Assembly (NCBI GenBank): GCA_903958115.1
Contig: CAJBRS010000101.1
Location: 1 to 30,173, forward strand
DNA: 30,173 nt
Reading direction: 5' to 3'
Source: an uncultured bacterium
Lineage (GTDB): Bacteria > Patescibacteriota > Minisyncoccia > Phycocordibacterales > CAWITU01
Numbering within the stretch: position 1 is the first letter of the stretch; every line of letters begins with the position of its first letter. The translations under genes were made by a program, and so were the position numbers. Positions 18,699 to 29,934 of this stretch are shown piece by piece. The notes under the pieces are model-generated. The model saw only the letters and a program-made list of their open reading frames with translations, was not told the origin of the DNA and did no database searches.

Positions 18699-19538
18699 AT
18701 GAAAAATTATTTCGAAGATAAAAAAGGGGTGATGTTTGCAAGTTCAGTTGCTATTGTCTTGCTTGCAGTATTTCTCTTTACACAAATTATTACTAATCTT
18801 AAGGCGTTGGACACTATTGGTGAGCAACCTAACCCAACAAATATTATTACAGTATCAGGAACATCTGATGTTTCTGCTCCAGCAGACACTGCAGAATTTA
18901 GTTTTACTATAACTGGTGATGGCAAAACCGTTGCAGACGCACAAGCAAAAGCAAATCCTGTTTCTAAAAAAGCTCTTGATTATTTAAAAGCTCAAGGGAT
19001 TGCTGATGCCGATATTAATAACGGGGGGTACAACGCATATCCGCAGTATGGTACGGAGCAGGTAGCATGTCCTCAGGTTCAGACGATGATGGCTCCGGCT
19101 AATGGCGCAGCAGCTTCTCCGGTTTATTGTCCACCATCACAGCAGGTGATCACTGGATATGAAGTTAGTCAGACAATTTCTGTTAAGGTTCATGACACAA
19201 GTAAGGCGGGCACATTGCTTGGCGGTGTTGGGGCTCTAGGCGTTTCAAATATTTCTGGTTTGAGTTTTACTATTGATAACGAAGATTCTCTGAAGAATCA
19301 GGCGCGTAGTCAAGCTATCGACAAGGCTAGAGCTCAAGCAGAAGAGCTAGCAAAAGAATTACATGTTCACTTGGGTAAAATTACTAGTTTCTCTGAGCAG
19401 GGTAATTATCCTGGTCCGATTATGTATGCAAAGGCTATGATGTCTGGTGGTGCGGCTGATTCCGCATCTGCTCCAAGTATTCCAACAGGTTCAAATAAGA
19501 TTACTTCGACCGTTTCAATTAGCTACGAAATTCGTTAG
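18699..19538 (+). CDS. SIMPL (DUF541)-domain protein
   Basis: N-terminal TM helix; ITVSGTSDVSAPADTAEFSF; GYEVSQTISV; ARSQAIDKARAQAEELA; C-terminal VSISYEIR. Confidence 0.88.
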   Translation: MKNYFEDKKGVMFASSVAIVLLAVFLFTQIITNLKALDTIGEQPNPTNIITVSGTSDVSAPADTAEFSFTITGDGKTVADAQAKANPVSKKALDYLKAQGIADADINNGGYNAYPQYGTEQVACPQVQTMMAPANGAAASPVYCPPSQQVITGYEVSQTISVKVHDTSKAGTLLGGVGALGVSNISGLSFTIDNEDSLKNQARSQAIDKARAQAEELAKELHVHLGKITSFSEQGNYPGPIMYAKAMMSGGAADSASAPSIPTGSNKITSTVSISYEIR

Positions 19539-19542
19539 CCAG

Positions 19543-19646
19543 ACGAAACATCACACACAAAACACCCTTGTTTCAGAGACCGCTCCGGGCCGCACGCCCC
19601 GCGTCCTAGTCTCTTCAACAAGGGTGTTTTGTGTGTGATGTTTCGT
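19543..19646 (-). repeat. Long hairpin element E1 (core in reverse orientation)
   Basis: Perfect 30-bp IR (19543-19572/19617-19646), 2-nt mismatch, 6-bp inner stem, 28-nt core whose reverse complement is TAGGACGCGGGGCGTGCGGCCCGGAGCG. Confidence 0.93.
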
Positions 19647-19683
19647 TTGACTCACTCTTTTTTGTTATTGGAAAACTGGGCGT

Positions 19684-19772
19684 CCCGCACTCAGAATAAT
19701 ACCCCTAGAGAGACTAAGACTTGGCCAAGCGGCCCGGAGCGGTCTCTCTGGGGGTATTATTCTGAGTGCGGG
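19684..19772 (+). repeat. Long hairpin element E2
   Basis: 31-bp IR (19684-19714/19742-19772) with one T-G wobble around the 27-nt core TAAGACTTGGCCAAGCGGCCCGGAGCG. Confidence 0.95.
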
Positions 19773-19780
19773 GCAATCGG

Positions 19781-19808: not shown

Positions 19809-19872
19809 ATGAGGTATTAACACCCCCGACAGGGGTTTTTTAATAGGGAAACTAGATTTCCCAACAAAATAT

Positions 19873-20049
19873 ATGGGACTAACAGAATATATAAAAGAGA
19901 CAAAAGTTGAGATGAAACATGTTACATGGCCAAGTCGCAGACAGGCGATTGCTTTTACTGTGGTGGTTATTCTTATTTCGATCGGTGTTGCTTTATATCT
20001 AGGATTCTTTGATTTTCTGTTTACTCTAGGACTTGGGAAAATTATCTAA
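19873..20049 (+). CDS. secE: Preprotein translocase subunit SecE (58 aa; absent from ORF track)
   Basis: Hand translation MGLTEYIKETKVEMKHVTWPSRRQAIAFTVVVILISIGVALYLGFFDFLFTLGLGKII: conserved E(M/L)KxVxWP motif plus one TM helix; lies directly upstream of nusG. Confidence 0.95.
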   Translation: MGLTEYIKETKVEMKHVTWPSRRQAIAFTVVVILISIGVALYLGFFDFLFTLGLGKII

Positions 20050-21110: not shown

Positions 21111-21120
21111 GTTGTAACGT

Positions 21121-21211
21121 AAGCACAAACAAAATAACACCCCTAAAGAGAGTAAGGCTTGGCCTAGCGGCCACGAGCGCTCTCTTTAGGGGTGTTATTT
21201 TGTTTGTGCTT
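21121..21211 (+). repeat. Long hairpin element E3
   Basis: Perfect 32-bp IR (21121-21152/21180-21211) around the 27-nt core TAAGGCTTGGCCTAGCGGCCACGAGCG; starts 10 nt after the rplK stop. Confidence 0.95.
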
Positions 21212-21253
21212 GCTTTATGTACCTATTTCACATAATGTTACGAAAAAAGGAGG
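21210..21253 (+). promoter_or_regulatory. Promoter-RBS module overlapping E3: TTGCTT-N17-TAATGT-TACGAAAAAAGGAGG
   Basis: TTGCTT 21210-21215, TAATGT 21233-21238, GGAGG 21249-21253; the same architecture follows E4. Confidence 0.65.
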
Positions 21254-21259
21254 TTGATT

Positions 21260-21868
21260 GTGAAAAAAAATATAGATTTACTACCACCCAAAACATACAT
21301 ACATGTCCTACCAGGAGGAAAGATGCCCAAGCGTCAGACCGCCGGTGCTATTGGATACGATGTTCATCTTCGGGCAATTGTTTCGCCGACAGAGATGAGC
21401 GAAGAAAATCCTGTTCTTCGCAAAACCATTTTTGGTTTTGATCGTATTCCTAGGAGAAATAGTGCTTTGGCTAAGAAAATTTTCAGCGTCAGAAGAAAGA
21501 AAGGGGAGGGACATGAGCTTGTCTATCGGATGGCTCCGCATGAGTCTGTTCTGGTCGGTATAGGTTTTGTTACCGCAATGCCTTTCCCGATGTTTTATTG
21601 GACTGCTCCGCGCAGTGGTCTCGCTTCTAAGTGGGGCATTACAGTTACAAACGCTCCTGGCACTGTCGATCCTGATTATCGGGGTGAGGCGGGCATTCTT
21701 GTTTATAATCGTAACAATCACACTTTTGATCTTAAACAAGATATGCGTATTGCCCAGATCATTTTTCAGTGGGCGCTCATCCCACAGCTAAAAAGAGTTC
21801 GTTCTTACAGTAAATTACCGCCTTCTATCAGAGGGATTGATGGATTTGGCTCGACTGGTTTGGAATAA
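21260..21868 (+). CDS. dut: Trimeric dUTPase, second copy, with ~48-aa insertion
   Basis: Motif I AIGYDV, II PRSGLA, III NAPGTVDPDYRGE, IV RIAQ, V RGIDGFGSTG; GTG start 6 nt after GGAGG. Confidence 0.9.
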   Translation: MKKNIDLLPPKTYIHVLPGGKMPKRQTAGAIGYDVHLRAIVSPTEMSEENPVLRKTIFGFDRIPRRNSALAKKIFSVRRKKGEGHELVYRMAPHESVLVGIGFVTAMPFPMFYWTAPRSGLASKWGITVTNAPGTVDPDYRGEAGILVYNRNNHTFDLKQDMRIAQIIFQWALIPQLKRVRSYSKLPPSIRGIDGFGSTGLE

Positions 21869-21881
21869 AAAAACGTTCCCA

Positions 21882-21912
21882 AAAAGCGGCTGTTCGAAGA
21901 ATAGCCGCTTTT
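21882..21912. terminator. Intrinsic terminator, symmetric A/T flanks, after dut2
   Basis: AAAAGCGGCTGTTC-GAA-GAATAGCCGCTTTT. Confidence 0.75.
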
Positions 21913-21939
21913 GACTATCTCACAAAAGAATGGTAGTGT
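21911..21939 (+). promoter_or_regulatory. Promoter TTGACT-N17-TAGTGT (extended TG) for the DHH gene
   Basis: TTGACT 21911-21916 overlaps the terminator T-tract; TG 21931-21932; TAGTGT 21934-21939; GGAGG SD follows. Confidence 0.6.
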
Positions 21940-21958
21940 TCGCTCGGAGGAAAAAACT

Positions 21959-23014
21959 ATGAAACCATCTGAATTGGCAGATACCTTTACAAAAGTCGTC
22001 GAGTCTTTAAAGCATATCGTTATCGTTGTTGCTCAAATAGACCCAGACGCTCTCGCCTCAGCCTTTGTGCTGAAAGAGATCATCAGTAAAATCTCAGCGA
22101 AGTCGACCATGACGGTTGTGGATATCGTCTTTGGGGGCCACATTGGCAATGCCCAAAATAGGACGATCATCAACCTTTTTGATCTCTCGAGGGCCATGAT
22201 TCCTTCAACGGAATACGATTTCTCAAAATGTGAAGCCGTGGCTCTCGTCGATTCTTCAAAAATGAAGGATGGTCGGGTGACCCTGCCAACAAATCTTTCG
22301 CCAGTCATCGTCATCGATCACCATCGTGATAGTGATTTGCCGACAGGAGGAGGTCAGTTTTACTGGATTGATGAAGTTGGTTCTTGTTCCACTATGCTTG
22401 TTGAGTTGTGGTTGGCGCTTGGCTTCGAAATTGAAAAATTGAACGAGGCTCTTCTTGTAATGCTGGCGCTTGGGGTCTTCACTGATACCCAAGCACTCAT
22501 CCAAGCTGGTGAACGGGATTTCCAGGTTTATCAAAGTATCTCCAAACGCATAGAGCCGAGACAGCTTCAGAAGTTTCTGAGTCCGGCACTTAATAGAGAT
22601 TACTTTGATCAACTGCAAATAGCTTTGCAAAATCGAGTTCAAAAAAATGGTTCTTTGGTGACCGGTCTTGGTACCATTGACCATGATGATGGCGATAATG
22701 TTGCCCTCATTGCCGACCTTCTTATACGAGAAAGCACGGTCTCAACAGTGATTGTGTGGGCGATTGTTGACAATGTCATACGTATCGCCGCTCGCAACGA
22801 TGACGTGTCTGAACCTCTTGAGGATTTTCTTCGGGAGAAATTCGGGCCTGATTCTGGTGCGAAGTTGACCAGCCATGGATTGGGGATTGGAGGGGCTCGG
22901 CTTGAACTGAATTCTGCTCCTTGGATGACCAAGGCGTTGAAGTATGGCGATTCACAGAAGAAGCTCGAAGACTTTATCGGGCAGCTTGTTCAGGATCTCG
23001 TCTTCAACGATTGA
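21959..23014 (+). CDS. DHH/DHHA1-family phosphoesterase (NrnA/GdpP-like)
   Basis: Start moved to ATG 21959, after GGAGG. DPDALASA, LVDS, IDHH, GVFTDT, and a DHHA1-like C-terminal domain ending GIGGA. Confidence 0.88.
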   Translation: MKPSELADTFTKVVESLKHIVIVVAQIDPDALASAFVLKEIISKISAKSTMTVVDIVFGGHIGNAQNRTIINLFDLSRAMIPSTEYDFSKCEAVALVDSSKMKDGRVTLPTNLSPVIVIDHHRDSDLPTGGGQFYWIDEVGSCSTMLVELWLALGFEIEKLNEALLVMLALGVFTDTQALIQAGERDFQVYQSISKRIEPRQLQKFLSPALNRDYFDQLQIALQNRVQKNGSLVTGLGTIDHDDGDNVALIADLLIRESTVSTVIVWAIVDNVIRIAARNDDVSEPLEDFLREKFGPDSGAKLTSHGLGIGGARLELNSAPWMTKALKYGDSQKKLEDFIGQLVQDLVFND

Positions 23015-23032
23015 TTTCTGGACTCTAATCAG

Positions 23033-23068
23033 AAAGCGCGTCTCCTCGGAGACGCGCTTTGTTTTTTT
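23033..23068. terminator. Intrinsic terminator between convergent DHH and folA
   Basis: AAAGCGCGTCTC-CTCG-GAGACGCGCTTT followed by a T-rich tract. Confidence 0.8.
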
Positions 23069-23561
23069 ATTTTAATACTTTGTATTCGAGAAGCAGTGTT
23101 CCACTTGGGGTTTTTTCTTCGGAAACCAATTCGAGTTTAAAATCGATATCCTGATTGAAGATCGTTAGACCCTTGCCAAATACAATAGGTTCGACAGTTA
23201 GATACAATTTTTCTATCAAGCCCGATTTCATAAACATTGTGTAGATACTTTGGCCGCCACAAATTGCTACTTCTTTGAAACCTCTTTCTTCAAGTTTTTT
23301 AAAAAGAATAGCTGGTTCGTCTGTAGTTGTTTCAGCTCCATCAAATGTCTCGTTTAGTGAGTACACAATATTGAGCCGGCCTGGGAGAGGATTTTTTAAT
23401 GTTTTGAATGTTGTCTGGCCCATTACCACGACACCAGCGCGTTTGGTTATTTCGACAAAGCGAGCCTTGTCTTCTTTGCTGGTCCAATAGGCTGCGTGAT
23501 TAGTATCTTTGGCAATAAATCCGTCTGTCGTCAAGGCTGAAATAATGAATGGTTTTATCAT
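23067..23561 (-). CDS. folA: Dihydrofolate reductase
   Basis: ISALTTDGFIA, SKEDKARF, VVVMGQTTF, LPGRLNIV, AICGGQSIY, LYLTV. Start placed at ATG 23561 (TATAAT 6 nt upstream); ATG 23567 is the alternative. Confidence 0.92.
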   Translation of the reverse strand: MIKPFIISALTTDGFIAKDTNHAAYWTSKEDKARFVEITKRAGVVVMGQTTFKTLKNPLPGRLNIVYSLNETFDGAETTTDEPAILFKKLEERGFKEVAICGGQSIYTMFMKSGLIEKLYLTVEPIVFGKGLTIFNQDIDFKLELVSEEKTPSGTLLLEYKVLK

Positions 23562-23624
23562 GCTCATATTATATCGTTTTATTGTTTTCTGTGGAAATAA
23601 AATTATGCTAAAATACCGATACAT

Positions 23625-24230
23625 ATGACCGAGGCCAATATAACAATAAATAAAGGAATTTTTGGTTTAAATGCCAACTTTAGCCATCGGTATATTTCTG
23701 ATTATAAGAAGCTCACCAAGCTCGTTGATCATTGTAAGGGATTGGGGTTGGAGGTTGTTTTGACTCAAGGGACCTATGATATGGTGCATATTGGTCATGC
23801 TAGGTATTTTGAAGAAGCAAAAAAACACGGTGACCTATTGATTGTCGGAGTAGATAGTGATGAAAAAGTTCGAGCGCGAAAAGGCCCGGAGCGTCCAGTG
23901 GTGCCACAAGATGAAAGACTTGAAATGGTGGCGCATCTTCGATCTGTTGACGTGGTTGTTTTAAAACAACACAAAGCTCCTAAGTGGAGTTTAATTAAGA
24001 CAGTAAGGCCTGATGTATTAATTGCCACGAAAGAAACTTACACGAAAGCTCAACTAAAAGAATTAGAAAAATATTGCAAGAAAATAATTGTGCTAGATCC
24101 AATGGCCACCACTTCCACGAGCGCCAAGATTCGACGACTTCAGATAAGTACAGCCAAAAGTCTTGGGAAGCAACTTACCCCTAAAATAATGTCGACGATT
24201 GAAGAGGTTCTAGAAAATTTGAAGAGATAG
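23625..24230 (+). CDS. Cytidylyltransferase-like (HIGH-motif, RfaE-II/TagD-like) protein
   Basis: GTYDMVHIGHARY, LIVGVDSD, KGPERP, DERLEMV, STSAKI. Confidence 0.88.
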   Translation: MTEANITINKGIFGLNANFSHRYISDYKKLTKLVDHCKGLGLEVVLTQGTYDMVHIGHARYFEEAKKHGDLLIVGVDSDEKVRARKGPERPVVPQDERLEMVAHLRSVDVVVLKQHKAPKWSLIKTVRPDVLIATKETYTKAQLKELEKYCKKIIVLDPMATTSTSAKIRRLQISTAKSLGKQLTPKIMSTIEEVLENLKR

Positions 24231-24240
24231 TCTAAAAAGT

Positions 24241-25080
24241 ATGGAAAAAGAAACAATCATTATTGCCCACATTCCTGTATTGCATCAGGGTTATAAAAAG
24301 TTATTCGAATCTCATCCTGAGGCAAAAGAGCTTTATATTCTTGGTCCAGAATTGGTGGGGGAATACCCTCATTTGGCAAAGGATATTCGCCAGCTTGATG
24401 CAGAATTGGTTAAGGAGGCTATCGAAAGTTGGAAGATTTTTGATGTTGTAGAAATTTTAGATAAGGAATTATTAGTAAAAATTGCTGATCTAAAACCACG
24501 AATTGTATTGCCAAATGAGGAGGTAACTAAAGGTCTTGTAGAAAAATATCTATCGAAGATCGAAGTGTTGTACAGCCCAATTTTTTTGCGATGGGACAAA
24601 CACAATACTGTCACAGAGACAGAAATAAATCCTGACAGAAAAATTTCCCGAGAAGAGTTTGATCGAAACATTATGGAAATGGCCGGCAAAGAGGGAGAGA
24701 AGAGTACTGATATCTGGCGAAGAATCGGATCAATTTTGGTAAAGGACGGAAATATTATTTGCTCGGCTCATAATATTGGAACGCCGACAGAGCAAACATC
24801 TATGTACGAAGGTGATCCAAGAAATAATTTTCATAAAGGGGTGCACCTTGAACTTTCAACTTTTCTTCATTCTGAGGCGGGGGTAGTGGCGGAGATGGCT
24901 CGTCGAGGAATTGCCGTAGAGGGAGCTGATATTTATGTAACGACATACCCATGTGCGCCGTGTGCGAAAATGATTGCTTATTCTGGCATCAAAAGAGTTT
25001 TTTATAAAAATGGATATGGGGTATTAGACAGCGAGAGAATCTTGAAAGAGAAAGGAGTGGAGATTATAAGGGTAGAGTAA
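24241..25080 (+). CDS. dCMP-deaminase-like protein with extra N-terminal domain
   Basis: Zn-deaminase motifs HSEAG and PCAPC in the C-terminal half; ~120-aa N-terminal domain beginning AHIPVLHQGY. Confidence 0.85.
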   Translation: MEKETIIIAHIPVLHQGYKKLFESHPEAKELYILGPELVGEYPHLAKDIRQLDAELVKEAIESWKIFDVVEILDKELLVKIADLKPRIVLPNEEVTKGLVEKYLSKIEVLYSPIFLRWDKHNTVTETEINPDRKISREEFDRNIMEMAGKEGEKSTDIWRRIGSILVKDGNIICSAHNIGTPTEQTSMYEGDPRNNFHKGVHLELSTFLHSEAGVVAEMARRGIAVEGADIYVTTYPCAPCAKMIAYSGIKRVFYKNGYGVLDSERILKEKGVEIIRVE

Positions 25081-25089
25081 GTATAAAGA

Positions 25090-25111
25090 GCCTGCCGAGA
25101 TGTCGGCAGGC
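25090..25111 (-). terminator. Intrinsic terminator of the minus-strand HIT2 gene
   Basis: GCCTGCCGA-GATG-TCGGCAGGC; the minus-strand tail reads TCTTTATA. Confidence 0.65.
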
Positions 25112-25124
25112 CCCGCTGTGTTTT

Positions 25125-25715
25125 TTAGCACGCTCCTTTTGGTGCCATCTTGTCTTCCACGAGGGAACGTTCTTCTTCAGAGAGTTCTTCGAAGGACATT
25201 CCTTGTCGCATTTTCTCAAAGACCTGCAGGATAGGTAGTTTTTCCACGAGGTTTTTCGACGACTTTGCAATTGTCACTGTGACCCGATCTCTGCCCGTTG
25301 GCACATGATAATTGAAGTGTAGGTGAGGCATGCTCTTGGCATTGCGAAGTGGATTGCCTGATCGTACCAGTAGAACGCCGCCGTCTATGGAGAATTCTCG
25401 ATTGATCCAACGTGTCGCTTCTGCAAGAAGAAACCATTCCTTGTAGTTTACCTCATCAATATTACCAAGGTGACGTTTTGATGGTATTACGAATTGGTAG
25501 TCTTGCCCTTCTTGTGCTGCGAGGTTGTTTTTCCAGACGCGCCAAGCATCGTTCTCATAAAGCGTCTTGTTTAATTCTGGGTCAATTTGGCAAAAGCCAC
25601 AGACGCCCTGGAGCAATGAATCCACCTTTTTACAGTAGTATGCATAGTTGCTGACATTGAATAGTTGCCAGATATCATCTGGCGATATTCCTGGTACCTG
25701 AAATTCAGGATACAT
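25125..25715 (-). CDS. Divergent HIT-superfamily protein (HIT2, HLHFN variant)
   Basis: CGFC Zn knuckle, FVIPSKRH, NAKSMPHLHFNYH; strong SD AAAAGGAGG upstream. Confidence 0.78.
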   Translation of the reverse strand: MYPEFQVPGISPDDIWQLFNVSNYAYYCKKVDSLLQGVCGFCQIDPELNKTLYENDAWRVWKNNLAAQEGQDYQFVIPSKRHLGNIDEVNYKEWFLLAEATRWINREFSIDGGVLLVRSGNPLRNAKSMPHLHFNYHVPTGRDRVTVTIAKSSKNLVEKLPILQVFEKMRQGMSFEELSEEERSLVEDKMAPKGAC

Positions 25716-25757
25716 AAGCTCTCCTCCTTTTTATTGTTTTACCGACGTTTCGTTCGT

Positions 25758-25786
25758 ATCCTAGTTCAGTAGGAGCTCCTAGTCAA
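25758..25786 (-). promoter_or_regulatory. Promoter TTGACT-N17-TAGGAT for HIT2
   Basis: Minus strand: TTGACT 25786-25781, 17-nt spacer containing the palindrome AGGAGCTCCT, TAGGAT 25763-25758. Confidence 0.55.
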
Positions 25787-26263
25787 TTATTTGTTTTTTC
25801 TATTTTTAGGGTCACCGATTTTGAACCGGATGGCTTCACCCTTTTGATTTTCTAGGTCTGGCTCGATGAGATGGGCGTGGAGATGTAAGACGCTGTTGCC
25901 GTATGTGCCATATTCTGGGTTTGAACCGAAGCGCATCAGGAAAGCTCCACCTGGCATATTATTTTCCTTGCTAACATATTGGAAAAGCTCAAAAAGCTCT
26001 TGAGATGCTTCTGGTAACAAGTCGTTTAAATGTTCGATATGCGTTTTATGAATCGCTAGAAAGTGATGTTTGGTGTTTTCGTACGGCCACTGATTAAAAG
26101 TTAATGTCCAGTATTTGCCATCTTTAATAATGGGTTTTTTGTGATATTTTTTAAGATTTTCGGGACAGAAAGGGCAAACGTTGTCCGCAACAATTTGTTC
26201 CAGAACTTTTTTTTGTTCTTCTTCACGAGCGCTATCTATAATTACAAAATCTTTATCAGCCAT
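25787..26263 (-). CDS. HIT-family nucleotide hydrolase (HIT1)
   Basis: Start moved to ATG 26263, 1 nt after the thyA stop. CPFC, NQWPY, canonical triad VLHLHAHLI. Confidence 0.88.
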   Translation of the reverse strand: MADKDFVIIDSAREEEQKKVLEQIVADNVCPFCPENLKKYHKKPIIKDGKYWTLTFNQWPYENTKHHFLAIHKTHIEHLNDLLPEASQELFELFQYVSKENNMPGGAFLMRFGSNPEYGTYGNSVLHLHAHLIEPDLENQKGEAIRFKIGDPKNRKNK

Positions 26264-26264
26264 A

Positions 26265-27176
26265 TTAGATTGCAACAGGAATGCCTTTAATTCCAGGATG
26301 AGGTTCGTAATCAGAGAGTGTGAAATCTTCTTTTCGAAAATCAAAAAGATTTTTCTTTTCTTTGTTCATTGTAACAGTGGGGAATCGTCGTGGTTCTCTG
26401 GCTAGCATTGTTTCCACTGCTGGGATTTGGTCTACATAAATGTGAGCATCAGAAATGGTGTGGACATATTCGTAAGGAATAGTATTTGTGGCGTGAGCAA
26501 CCATCATTAAAAGCGCTGCATACTGGACCATGTTAGAAGGAACGCCGACCGGCACATCACCAGATCGCTGAATCATGTGAAGGGTTAGTTTGTTGTCGAT
26601 TACTCGAAAGTGAACCCATCCGTGGCATGGAGCGACTACTACTTTTTGTTGCTTTCCTTTGCCTCGCCCAATGTATTGAGGAACCCAAGGACTAACAAAA
26701 TGCGTGCGAAGCTGGGGTTCTTCAATGATTTGTTCAACAATATGTCTGAATTGATTAAAGCTCGGTCCCTCGGAAGTAGGGAAATCATGAAAAACGGCGC
26801 CATAAGAGCCGGGACCTAAATCTCCAGGAGCAAGCCCACGCTTTGCGCATTTTTCTGGTGTACCCCAAAATTTCCACCAATGACAGCCAAAAGATTCTAG
26901 GCCTTCCACTGTGCGAACACCATTTATGAAAGCGCAAATTTCTCCAATCGCTTGTTGCCAAACGGTGACAGGCAAGTGGTCGGAAACTTTAGGATCCATG
27001 TTTCTTTCTGTGATGATAGGGAAACCATTATCCATTCGGAATCGCATTGATCCGGATCCCATCAGGGTAATAGCATCAGTGCCTTGTTGGCTAATAGTAC
27101 GGGTGCCTTCTTTTAGAATTTTTCGAAGGAGATCTTGATATTGAGTGTCTGGTGTGCGTTCTGAATAGGGTTTCAT
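26265..27176 (-). CDS. thyA: Thymidylate synthase
   Basis: QYQDLL, FPIITER, GDLGPGSYG, catalytic PCH, QRSGD, GVPSN (dUMP-specifying Asn), DAHIY, YEPHP. Confidence 0.93.
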   Translation of the reverse strand: MKPYSERTPDTQYQDLLRKILKEGTRTISQQGTDAITLMGSGSMRFRMDNGFPIITERNMDPKVSDHLPVTVWQQAIGEICAFINGVRTVEGLESFGCHWWKFWGTPEKCAKRGLAPGDLGPGSYGAVFHDFPTSEGPSFNQFRHIVEQIIEEPQLRTHFVSPWVPQYIGRGKGKQQKVVVAPCHGWVHFRVIDNKLTLHMIQRSGDVPVGVPSNMVQYAALLMMVAHATNTIPYEYVHTISDAHIYVDQIPAVETMLAREPRRFPTVTMNKEKKNLFDFRKEDFTLSDYEPHPGIKGIPVAI

Positions 27177-27252
27177 ATCGGTATATGATACTTGCTCGCA
27201 AGGCCTTTTTCAAATTGCTGGTTTCAGGTCTTTGTGTTACAGTTTTTAAATT

Positions 27253-27816
27253 ATGATTTTAATCGGACTTGTTGGAGAAAATGGTAGTGGAAAAGAAACT
27301 TTTGCAAATTTGCTTAAGGAAAAATTTGGTACAAATGCCGTCACTCATATTCACACCTCCGATCTCCTAAAGGAAACTTTAACAGCATGGTCTGTGCCTC
27401 TTACTCGTCGCAACCTACAAGATATGGCTATTATTATGGATCATGCTTACGGAAAGGGAACACTTAGTCGTGCCATTAAAGAGAGAATTACAAATGCCAA
27501 GACAGATTTTGTCATTTTGGATGGAGTGCGCTGGCAGTCGGATGTTGATCTAATAAGAAGTATTACTCCTAATAAGCTTGTCTATATTACCGCTTCGGTT
27601 GAGCACCGTTACGAAAGAATCAAAACAAGAAAAGAGAAAGTGGGTGAGGATCAGGCATCATTCGAACAATTTTTGAAGGAAGAGCAAATTGAGACAGAGC
27701 TAGAAATAAAAAACATCGGGAAAGGCGCTGATATCACAATAGTAAATGACGGTTCAATCGAGGATTTGCGTAGGGAGGTGGAAGCAAGCACAAACAAAAT
27801 CACTTGTATTTTGTAG
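27253..27816 (+). CDS. P-loop (d)NMP-kinase-like protein
   Basis: LIGLVGENGSGKET, SDLL, ILDGVR, YITASVEHRYER, IVNDGSIEDL. The last 11 codons lie in the E4 left arm. Confidence 0.8.
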   Translation: MILIGLVGENGSGKETFANLLKEKFGTNAVTHIHTSDLLKETLTAWSVPLTRRNLQDMAIIMDHAYGKGTLSRAIKERITNAKTDFVILDGVRWQSDVDLIRSITPNKLVYITASVEHRYERIKTRKEKVGEDQASFEQFLKEEQIETELEIKNIGKGADITIVNDGSIEDLRREVEASTNKITCIL

Positions 27817-27882
27817 ACTAAGACTTGGCCAAGCGGCCCGGAGCGGTCTACAAAATACAAGTGATTTTGTTTGTGCTTGCTT
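27782..27882 (+). repeat. Long hairpin element E4
   Basis: Perfect 37-bp IR (27782-27818/27846-27882) around a 27-nt core identical to that of E2. Confidence 0.95.
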
Positions 27883-27920
27883 TTCGCATTTCTTTCGCTT
27901 AGTGTTACGAAAAAAGGAGG
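27877..27920 (+). promoter_or_regulatory. Promoter-RBS module overlapping E4: TTGCTT-N17-TAGTGT-TACGAAAAAAGGAGG
   Basis: TTGCTT 27877-27882, TAGTGT 27900-27905, GGAGG 27916-27920. Confidence 0.65.
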
Positions 27921-27925
27921 TAAGT

Positions 27926-28240
27926 ATGACAACGACGTGGTTTGTCTCGTGCAATTCATCCACTAATGACAAAATCCGGCAAAATTTGCCAGAGGAAAAC
28001 ATTCAGCGGGGCATGACTTGTATTGATCTTCAAAAAAGACAGATCAAACTTGATTTGTGGGAATGCGATTTCAAGTTTGTTCAAGAGCTTCAGTCGAATA
28101 AGAAGAATTGGAAGCTATCGTTCCGAGTCTTTCGTCGCGTGGGCCCTTATGGACGTTCTATTCGCGAAGCACCGGCCTGGCTCTACGACGAGTCTGTGCC
28201 AGCTCCAAAGAAATCAAAAACCAAAGTTCCGAGAAAATAG
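27926..28240 (+). CDS. Small hypothetical protein (104 aa)
   Basis: Start moved to ATG 27926, 5 nt after GGAGG. MTTTWFVSCN...KKSKTKVPRK with a basic C-terminal tail; followed by a hairpin. Confidence 0.7.
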   Translation: MTTTWFVSCNSSTNDKIRQNLPEENIQRGMTCIDLQKRQIKLDLWECDFKFVQELQSNKKNWKLSFRVFRRVGPYGRSIREAPAWLYDESVPAPKKSKTKVPRK

Positions 28241-28260: not shown

Positions 28261-28294
28261 CGCCGCGACCACTTAAAAAGCAGGGGTCGCGGCG
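28261..28294 (+). terminator. GC-rich hairpin, probable terminator
   Basis: CGCCGCGACC-14 nt-GGTCGCGGCG followed by CTTCTATTATTT. Confidence 0.55.
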
Positions 28295-28322
28295 CTTCTA
28301 TTATTTGTGCTAAAATAAATTC

Positions 28323-29508: not shown

Positions 29509-29934
29509 ATGATTAAGGTAAAAATAAAACGACTTAACGGAGAAGCAAAATTACCAAGCTATGCTCATCCAGGGGATGTTGGCCTGGATTTGTATTCGAT
29601 GGAGGATAGGATTATTGCTCCAATGGAACACGCTCGTTTTTTTAACGGTTTTGCTTTGGAGTTTCCGGAGGGATATGCGGCAATAGTGAAAGATAAGGGT
29701 AGTATTTCAAAAGCTGGTCTGCATACTATGGGGGGAGTTTTTGATGCTGGCTATAGGGGAGAATATAATGTGCATTTGGTTAATTTAAGCCAAGAACCTT
29801 ACACTGTTGAAAAAGGTGATAAGATTGCTCAGCTAGTCATTTTGCCGGTTGCGATTGCTGAATTAGAAGAGGTTGAAGAACTATCTGATTCGTCTCGTGG
29901 GGAAGGGCGCTTTGGTAGTACGGGGAAAAAATGA
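29509..29934 (+). CDS. dut: Trimeric dUTPase (backbone copy)
   Basis: GDVGLDL, GGVFDAGYRGE, KIAQ, RGEGRFGSTG; motif II is atypical (DKGS). Confidence 0.9.
   Translation: MIKVKIKRLNGEAKLPSYAHPGDVGLDLYSMEDRIIAPMEHARFFNGFALEFPEGYAAIVKDKGSISKAGLHTMGGVFDAGYRGEYNVHLVNLSQEPYTVEKGDKIAQLVILPVAIAELEEVEELSDSSRGEGRFGSTGKK

Follow-up and report, generated by a model that had tools for sequence, protein, structure and literature searches.

A probably duplicated junction of a dispersed palindrome and a putative promoter header in front of unrelated genes in an uncultured Patescibacteria genome

The window analyzed here is a 30,173-nt stretch of DNA (GenBank assembly GCA_903958115.1, contig CAJBRS010000101.1, positions 1 to 30,173 of the forward strand) from an uncultured bacterium of the Patescibacteriota (Minisyncoccia; Phycocordibacterales; CAWITU01), whose genome, G000, comprises 724,501 bp in 133 contigs, with 40% G+C and 93% completeness. 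Within this window, two genes on the forward strand are each preceded by a long hairpin (E3 and E4, respectively) and by a short segment, termed here the header, that resembles a promoter followed by a Shine-Dalgarno leader. One gene encodes a 202-aa, long-form dUTPase (21260-21868; PF00692 at 1.2e-17, GTG start) and the other a 104-aa orphan protein without a family match (27926-28240). A preliminary description of this DNA had reported the same order of elements at both sites, namely hairpin, TTGCTT, 17 nt, TA(A/G)TGT, leader and start codon, and direct reading of the sequence confirmed this, as well as the identity of both genes. Each of them is followed by its own plain 10-bp terminator-like hairpin (21882-21912 behind the dUTPase gene and 28261-28295 behind the orphan).

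E3 (21115-21217, forward strand) begins 4 nt past the rplK stop codon. Its 38-nt arms (21115-21152 and 21180-21217) are 95% complementary and enclose a 27-nt centre (21153-21179) of core subtype B, closed by the clamp GAGAG/CTCTC. E4 (27782-27882, forward strand) possesses 37-nt arms (27782-27818 and 27846-27882) that are 100% complementary, around a 27-nt centre (27819-27845) of core subtype D with the clamp TAGAC/GTCTA. The RNA folds calculated for E3 and E4 reach -75.8 and -72.7 kcal/mol, respectively, both with a z of -13.4. The header behind E3 (21210-21259, forward strand) starts inside the right arm of the hairpin with the -35-like hexamer TTGCTT (21210-21215), which is followed by a 17-nt spacer, the -10-like hexamer TAATGT (21233-21238), the leader TACGAAAAAAGGAGGT (21239-21254, with GGAGG at 21249-21253) and the GTG start codon at 21260, 6 nt past GGAGG. 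In the header behind E4 (27877-27925, forward strand), TTGCTT (27877-27882) forms the end of the right arm and is followed by another 17-nt spacer, TAGTGT (27900-27905), the identical 16-mer TACGAAAAAAGGAGGT (27906-27921, with GGAGG at 27916-27920) and an ATG start codon at 27926, 5 nt past GGAGG. Transcription is predicted to start near 21245 and 27912, respectively.

The leader shared by the two sites is not a product of chance, because the genome of 724,501 bp contains the 18-mer TGTTACGAAAAAAGGAGG at exactly two places, and at no others when 2 mismatches are allowed. The two spacers, previously described as unrelated, match at 9 of 17 positions, and the sites as a whole align over 136 nt with 74% identity, including the outer 15 nt of both arms, indicating that they are diverged homologues. 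Over its central 61 nt, E3 shares 94% identity with a hairpin copy on contig C123; its outer arms instead resemble E4. The locus is not an assembly artefact, since the same arrangement is present in an independently assembled 147-kb metagenome contig of the same species (L092), and E3 with its header is spanned by Logan contigs from two further studies. DNA contigs of four sequencing runs were broken at the hairpin cores; they confirmed the locus and added no structural variant. In L092 (1650-1725), the tip stem of E3 lacks 1 nt and one arm change has no mirrored counterpart; either true polymorphism or misassembly of the hairpin could account for this.

The header, as a 47-nt segment of promoter, leader and Shine-Dalgarno sequence, has two copies in the study genome and is absent from all of the ~38 other hairpin copies of that genome. 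Further copies were found in two related lineages: three in a contig of a sister species (L067), whose synonymous divergence (dS) from the study genome is 0.4-1.2 across seven shared genes, and one in a 747-nt contig of a third lineage (L097), which shares 97% dUTPase identity with the sister. In the sister, the first copy (H1) lies behind the E3 ortholog and before a 194-aa orphan gene, the second (H2) lies behind a plain 12-bp terminator without a core-bearing hairpin and before the dUTPase gene, and the third (H3) lies behind the E4 ortholog and before the 104-aa orphan. The order in the third lineage is hairpin, header and dUTPase gene, as in the study genome. The preliminary description had presented the header as a portable unit carried by the hairpin, which is not supported, given its absence from the other hairpin copies and the position of H2 behind a plain terminator; as to its proposed role as an insulator joined to an expression header, the hairpin does occupy a terminator slot, but the header is not part of the hairpin element.

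Across the six copies in three lineages, GCTTGCTTT, a TA..GT box, an A-run and GGAGGT are invariant. A spacing of exactly 17 nt was measured in five copies (that of L097 was only aligned), and the spacer itself varies, with a pairwise identity of 72-85% among five copies. Between the study genome and L097, the 34 nt around the -10 box and leader (TTTCACATAATGT...GGAGGTTGATT) are identical. The hexamers are thus more conserved than their surroundings across orthologues and, together with the 17-nt spacing and the leader, they have been kept in six copies despite a dS of 0.4-1.2 relative to L067, which supports the earlier proposal of a functional sigma-70-type promoter and the reading of the header as a real promoter with a Shine-Dalgarno leader. 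A search for a degenerate header pattern in the representative genomes of GTDB gave 17 matches, all in unrelated phyla and judged to be due to chance, and a search in JGI metagenomes gave one match, which was the same locus. The header therefore recurs in relatives without wider spread, and appears to be restricted to this species group. Its full Shine-Dalgarno sequence, AAGGAGGT, is not unusual, as it precedes 13 open reading frames (ORFs) in the genome.

The hairpins belong to a family with ~40 copies in the 0.72-Mb genome, as retrieved by searching for long hairpins and for the sequence of the centre; this count is a lower bound, several copies being located at contig ends. All copies have in common only the 27-nt centre, which in most of them reads TAAGACTTGGGCAAGCGCCCCGGAGCG, and a 5-bp clamp, GAGAC/GTCTC. 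E3 represents a second centre subtype, E2 and E4 a GGCC/GGCC variant, and E1 a third subtype. The arms (30-52 nt) vary among the copies, with nearly perfect pairing. Of the 29 predicted pairs in an alignment of 40 copies, 25 show compensatory changes, and 89% of the cells are paired versus 63% in shuffled alignments, none of 500 shuffles reaching the observed covariation. All four pair types are present in the arm columns, and the tip stem inside the centre covaries as well (30 copies with G-C, 8 with C-G). With a covariance model derived from the alignment, matches were obtained in 8 of 150 further genomes from the order, all of different families, with at least 29, 11, 9, 5, 2, 1, 1 and 1 matches per genome. 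The centre is kept almost letter-perfect in 7 of these 8 genomes, with clamp and arms free to vary, and the single weak match in the remaining one (G036) lacks the centre.

Two further members of the family lie in the window. E1 (19537-19652, reverse strand) has a subtype C core in the opposite orientation and stands directly behind a SIMPL-family gene; in the sister contig, its place is taken by a plain hairpin. E2 (19682-19774, forward strand) has no header and is followed by a strong promoter, TTGACA-16-TATTAT, for secE-nusG-rplK. Two small hairpins, CCCC-cgaca-GGGG with a T-run and then GGGAAA-ctaga-TTTCCC, lie between this promoter and secE (19809-19875). They are nearly identical in the sister contig despite a dS of ~0.7, which makes this leader a candidate conserved attenuator or regulatory leader of secE-nusG-rplK.

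About 24 of 36 hairpin copies lie at most 9 nt from a gene end, nearly always a stop codon, or overlap it. By a hand tally, the core is in the sense orientation relative to the adjoining gene in ~9 cases and antisense in ~14. A profile of 34 copies showed that the arms, read outward from the clamp, are first T/A-rich, become C-rich at -12 to -15 and finally A-rich at -17 to -28, with the mirrored pattern on the 3' arm. The copies thus display a G+C-rich stem base, an A-tract upstream and a T-tract downstream, behind a stop codon, as expected for bidirectional intrinsic terminators, and their order of A-tract, C-run, stem, G-run and T-tract is also that of the plain bidirectional terminators in the study genome. 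At H2 and at the position of E1, the sister has plain terminators in the corresponding slots. From the location of the hairpins at gene ends and from this shared layout, they most likely act as terminators of the upstream transcript.

Inner arms of the hairpin copies are common only to small subgroups, namely E3 with the C123 copy, the copies on C19 and C118, and those on C78 and C93. Two copies in genome G022 (L049:1457-1655 and L057:94-290) share 200 nt, including flanks on both sides, and copies in genome G100 (L051, L060 and L066) share 115-145 nt, arms included, which suggests that the copied unit differs between genomes. No paralogous gene family was found to recur beside the hairpin copies, the core pattern was absent from the viral contigs of IMG/VR, examined for a phage carrier, and no Y1/RAYT or IS110 transposase was present in the study genome, which alone among the genomes compared encodes TnpB. 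Xer-like recombinases occur as one full-length copy per genome. In the study genome, a hairpin copy (C58:2755-2867) lies immediately upstream of the sole full-length gene for an Xer-like tyrosine recombinase (C58:1839-2363, reverse strand), a linkage not seen in the other four genomes examined. Two other ideas were set aside. A tRNA origin of the core was rejected, as ARAGORN found no tRNA in the window and the 39 tRNAs of the genome gave no convincing match beyond a short D-loop resemblance. The hairpins are not general promoter carriers either, 9 of 67 flanks having a promoter match of at least 9 of 12 positions versus 6.5% of random windows, which indicates no special link.

The arms are constrained by Watson-Crick pairing only, since G-U pairs account for ~16 of ~100 arm mismatches, which is the share expected by chance. 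In the comparison with the sister species, 10 of 12-13 changes in the arms have a mirrored counterpart on the opposite arm, 5 transversions and one indel among them. E2 contributes most of them, with 8 of 9-10 changes mirrored relative to its ortholog in L067 (4 transversions and one indel) and a centre that is identical at 27 of 27 positions. For E4, both arm changes are mirrored and none is unmirrored, and a C-G pair of the tip stem is swapped to G-C. Transversion pairs have no wobble intermediate. In the sister, the E3 centre is in the opposite orientation, with different inner arms and the same outer arms. Polymerase template switching is known to homogenize the arms of inverted repeats, invert their spacers and expand their arms (PMC8604942, PMC13100816, PMC7202029). 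The arms would thus be kept perfect by DNA-level copying from one arm to the other rather than by selection on RNA, a process that would also let them drift quickly. Watson-Crick-only pairing, mirrored changes, a centre that flips or is replaced, and mixed orientation all point to the hairpin being, most likely, a DNA-level palindrome that doubles as a terminator. The preliminary description had also suggested a cruciform switch at the header. This is unlikely, because a 27-nt non-palindromic centre strongly disfavours cruciform extrusion.

At the junctions of the sister, the dUTPase gene and the 104-aa orphan are at the same loci as in the study genome, with headers present; an additional gene was found. 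This 194-aa orphan lies between H1 and H2, and both of these headers are hybrids: H1 resembles the resident header over its 5' half and H2 over its 3' half, with divergence in the remaining half of each. The gene is lacking in the study genome and in L097, and its product has no homologue except itself among 5.8 billion proteins. This pattern would result if the chromosome and a circle bearing a header, the 194-aa gene and a terminator underwent a single crossover inside the header; the reverse reaction, excision of the circle, would leave the identical pattern. A gain in the sister lineage seems more parsimonious, because the gene is missing from both the study genome and L097, with L097 the closer of the two to the sister, but two independent deletions between direct repeats may also account for the distribution. 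The comparison suggests that header copies recombine and that genes come or go between them, as one event at one locus.

The dUTPase, whose sister ortholog starts with ATG at the position of GTG in the study genome, has more than 3000 homologues in Patescibacteria and a dN/dS (ratio of nonsynonymous to synonymous divergence) of 0.06 versus the sister. Relatives with a 66-67% identical dUTPase have the gene in other contexts, and in one of them (L090) it is equipped with its own terminator, a TTGACA-17-TATGTT promoter and AAGGAGG. The dUTPase gene is thus typical of the lineage, and a private promoter seems normal for it, given that distant relatives also provide it with its own junction of terminator, promoter and Shine-Dalgarno sequence. 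For the 104-aa orphan, only two homologues exist among 5.8 billion proteins; its dN/dS of 0.115 versus the sister, consistent with purifying selection, indicates that it is a real gene. Neither the 104-aa nor the 194-aa protein gave a match in Pfam, PHROGs or the protein atlas. The G+C content at third codon positions of header-led genes is only slightly higher and not decisive for a foreign origin.

Upstream of E4, a P-loop (d)NMP-kinase-like gene (27253-27816, forward strand, 187 residues) ends within the hairpin, the left arm of which encodes its last 11 codons and TAG stop codon (27782-27816). Homologues in 12 other genomes align only up to residues 176-185 of 187, mostly 176-179, so the tail of the protein appears to be supplied by E4. 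The thymidylate cluster in which these genes lie (DHFR, dCMP deaminase, ThyA, the kinase-like protein and SHMT) contains two genes of the dUTPase family, the 202-aa long form (21260-21868) and a canonical 141-aa form (29509-29934). No rplA follows rplK.

Comparison with known systems yielded partial likenesses. Like the REP/BIME and REPIN elements of proteobacteria (PMC3116915), the hairpins are short extragenic palindromes that occur in dozens of copies behind genes, and REP/BIME hairpins can end or stabilize transcripts (PMC3116915). However, REP stems are conserved in sequence, whereas here only the centre and clamp are conserved and the arms differ in every copy. REP elements also depend on a RAYT (Y1) transposase, and the corresponding PF01797 was not found in the study genome, G022 or G100, the only matches being in G066 and G113. 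The Correia elements of Neisseria, miniature inverted-repeat transposable elements with expression signals, are palindromic repeats next to genes and can supply a promoter or terminator. They resemble the present hairpins in their position, but their signals lie inside a repeat with many copies, whereas the promoter described here would lie outside the repeated unit and accompanies only 2 of ~40 copies. Rickettsia palindromic elements, which are likewise hairpin repeats from a reduced genome, can extend into coding sequence, as the left arm of E4 does at the end of the kinase-like gene; their copies share the whole sequence, whereas only the core and clamp are common to the copies here, and no internal in-frame insertion was seen in the study genome. 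The behaviour of the arms has a parallel in template-switched inverted repeats, or quasipalindrome mutagenesis, for which arm copying, mirrored multi-nucleotide changes, spacer inversion and arm growth are described (PMC7202029, PMC8604942, PMC13100816). The mirrored changes, the flipped E3 core in the sister and the arms reaching neighbouring stop codons agree with this process, but it was described for isolated repeats, not for a dispersed family with a core common across bacterial families. Our literature search found no published description of such elements in Patescibacteria or the Candidate Phyla Radiation.

Taking these results together, we consider the most probable explanation (with a rough probability of 0.65) to be a duplicated two-part junction, consisting of a dispersed palindrome that would act as a terminator and a local header that would recombine. 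Both sites would be diverged duplicates of one intergenic junction of ~135 nt, built from two independent parts. The first part would be a copy of a dispersed Patescibacteria palindromic repeat, whose asymmetric 27-nt core may fold into a small tip hairpin, closed by the 5-bp clamp and by arms of 30-50 nt that are copy-specific yet Watson-Crick perfect, presumably because one arm is copied from the other by replication template switching. Sitting in the slot of plain bidirectional intrinsic terminators, this hairpin would end the upstream transcript. The second part, the 47-nt header, would be a sigma-70-type promoter of weak consensus with its -35 box in the last bases of the hairpin arm, continued by a leader of ~15 nt with a strong Shine-Dalgarno sequence, and would give a small gene its own monocistronic expression. 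The header would be lineage-specific, with 2-3 copies per genome inside a single 8-kb nucleotide-metabolism cluster, the copies would recombine mutually, and the 194-aa gene of the sister would arise by a single crossover between headers, either by integration or by excision of a circle.

Several points weigh against this explanation. TTGCTT and TAATGT/TAGTGT each match the consensus at 3 of 6 positions (TTG and TAnnnT being kept), and a consensus scan with a 9-of-12 threshold calls neither header site. Part of the conservation of the -35 hexamer could come from its placement in the hairpin arm, which at E4 pairs with coding sequence. Termination by the hairpins and initiation at the headers are predictions from sequence. 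Template switching alone does not explain the conservation of the core across families, which would need a function or mobility, and no transposase for such mobility was found. The polarity of the 194-aa gene event depends on a single-gene tree and a 747-nt contig, the gene contexts outside the window were derived with a simple ORF heuristic, and the fragmentation of the genome into 133 contigs is a limit.

Among the alternatives, a true cassette system comes nearest to the gene-capture proposal of the preliminary description: headers, with or without a hairpin, would serve as attachment sites, and units of header, ORF and terminator would be captured, excised as circles and re-inserted, so that the clade would systematically shuffle small accessory genes. 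The proposal gains from the sister, in which an unrelated gene absent elsewhere stands behind a header, bounded by two hybrid copies as after a single-crossover integration; the header precedes three unrelated genes, each with its own terminator, and both orphans are almost without homologues. The integron attC cassettes offer a parallel, being imperfect palindromes that border small, unrelated, often orphan genes subject to gain and loss. However, attC sites conserve their outer R and L boxes and not the centre, the reverse of what is seen here, and no attC boxes (RYYYAAC ... GTTRRRY) were found at the ends of E3 or E4. Integron cassettes are promoterless and need IntI, whereas each gene here appears to have its own header promoter and terminator. 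No integrase (PF00589) match lies in the 30-kb window, the matches in the genome being on C58 (full-length) and C133 (weak partial), and the four other element-bearing genomes searched have one tyrosine recombinase each. Moreover, a single gain or loss was seen, the 2-3 header copies per genome all belong to one 8-kb cluster, no 3' boundary sequence is shared, the dUTPase gene and the 104-aa orphan have stayed in place in the sister, and ordinary RecA-type recombination between 47-nt repeats explains the event. We therefore regard a true cassette system as unlikely and a dedicated gene-capture system as unproven, given that no recombinase, attC-like site or wider spread was found. A related idea, to which we give equally little credence, is that the headers are portable homology sites, so that units of header, ORF and terminator would be released as circles by recombination between headers and inserted anew at a different one, while the core hairpins next to them would insulate and would stall replication, promoting exchange.

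Two alternatives remain. The header could be an operator or a special promoter class of one nucleotide-metabolism regulon, kept for a common regulator and not by duplication or mobility. All header copies do belong to the thymidylate/dNTP cluster, and conservation reaches past the hexamers, to blocks such as the GC before TTGCTT and ACGAAAAA after the -10 box, which have lasted despite the high dS. Such a site would hardly account for the similarity of the spacers and outer hairpin arms, which indicates common descent, nor for the lack of the motif before other genes of the cluster (thyA, folA, glyA and the second dUTPase gene) and elsewhere in the genome; two of the three header-led genes have no assigned function. 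These points render a regulon site improbable. It is also conceivable that the hairpin is a structured RNA, either non-coding or cis-regulatory, with the header similarity as part of the RNA gene. The very stable fold, the strong covariation, which includes the tip stem (GGGC/GCCC versus GGCC/GGCC), and the core conserved across families would fit an RNA. An RNA would not be expected to have its core in both orientations relative to the adjoining gene, and neither the lack of preference for G-U pairs nor the mirrored transversions without a wobble intermediate speak for one. The header is missing from all other hairpin copies, and Rfam gave nothing over the window at gathering thresholds, permissive E-values adding only generic long-hairpin (microRNA precursor) matches far below threshold. 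We thus hold a structured RNA to be very improbable.

The genome contains other dispersed repeats. A second hairpin family, unrelated in sequence to that of E1-E4, has a conserved centre of ~67-77 nt and copy-specific arms of 20-42 nt (C3:330-446, C39:443-557, C39:5471-5621, C5 near 2430 and C122 near 3755). Self-BLAST of the genome also revealed a third repeat of ~33-42 nt (C5:495, C44:491 and 1737, C37:9991, C72:2085, C89:1625, C103:1737, C108:18318, C38:1251 and C9:4803).

In Patescibacteria, little is known about the limits of transcription units or about how orphan genes are gained in tiny genomes. The locus provides a concrete and testable promoter and leader for such an organism, as well as a candidate class of long terminators with self-repairing arms. 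The hairpin family is of interest for its conserved core, its mirrored arm changes and its patchy spread across bacterial families. In the sister species, as a single clean case, an orphan gene has come or gone precisely between two copies of a repeated promoter. If this route were general, gene turnover in reduced genomes would proceed via repeated promoter junctions rather than dedicated integrases, and headers that were truly portable would allow the integrase-free acquisition and shuffling of orphan genes in recombinase-poor, ultra-small genomes.

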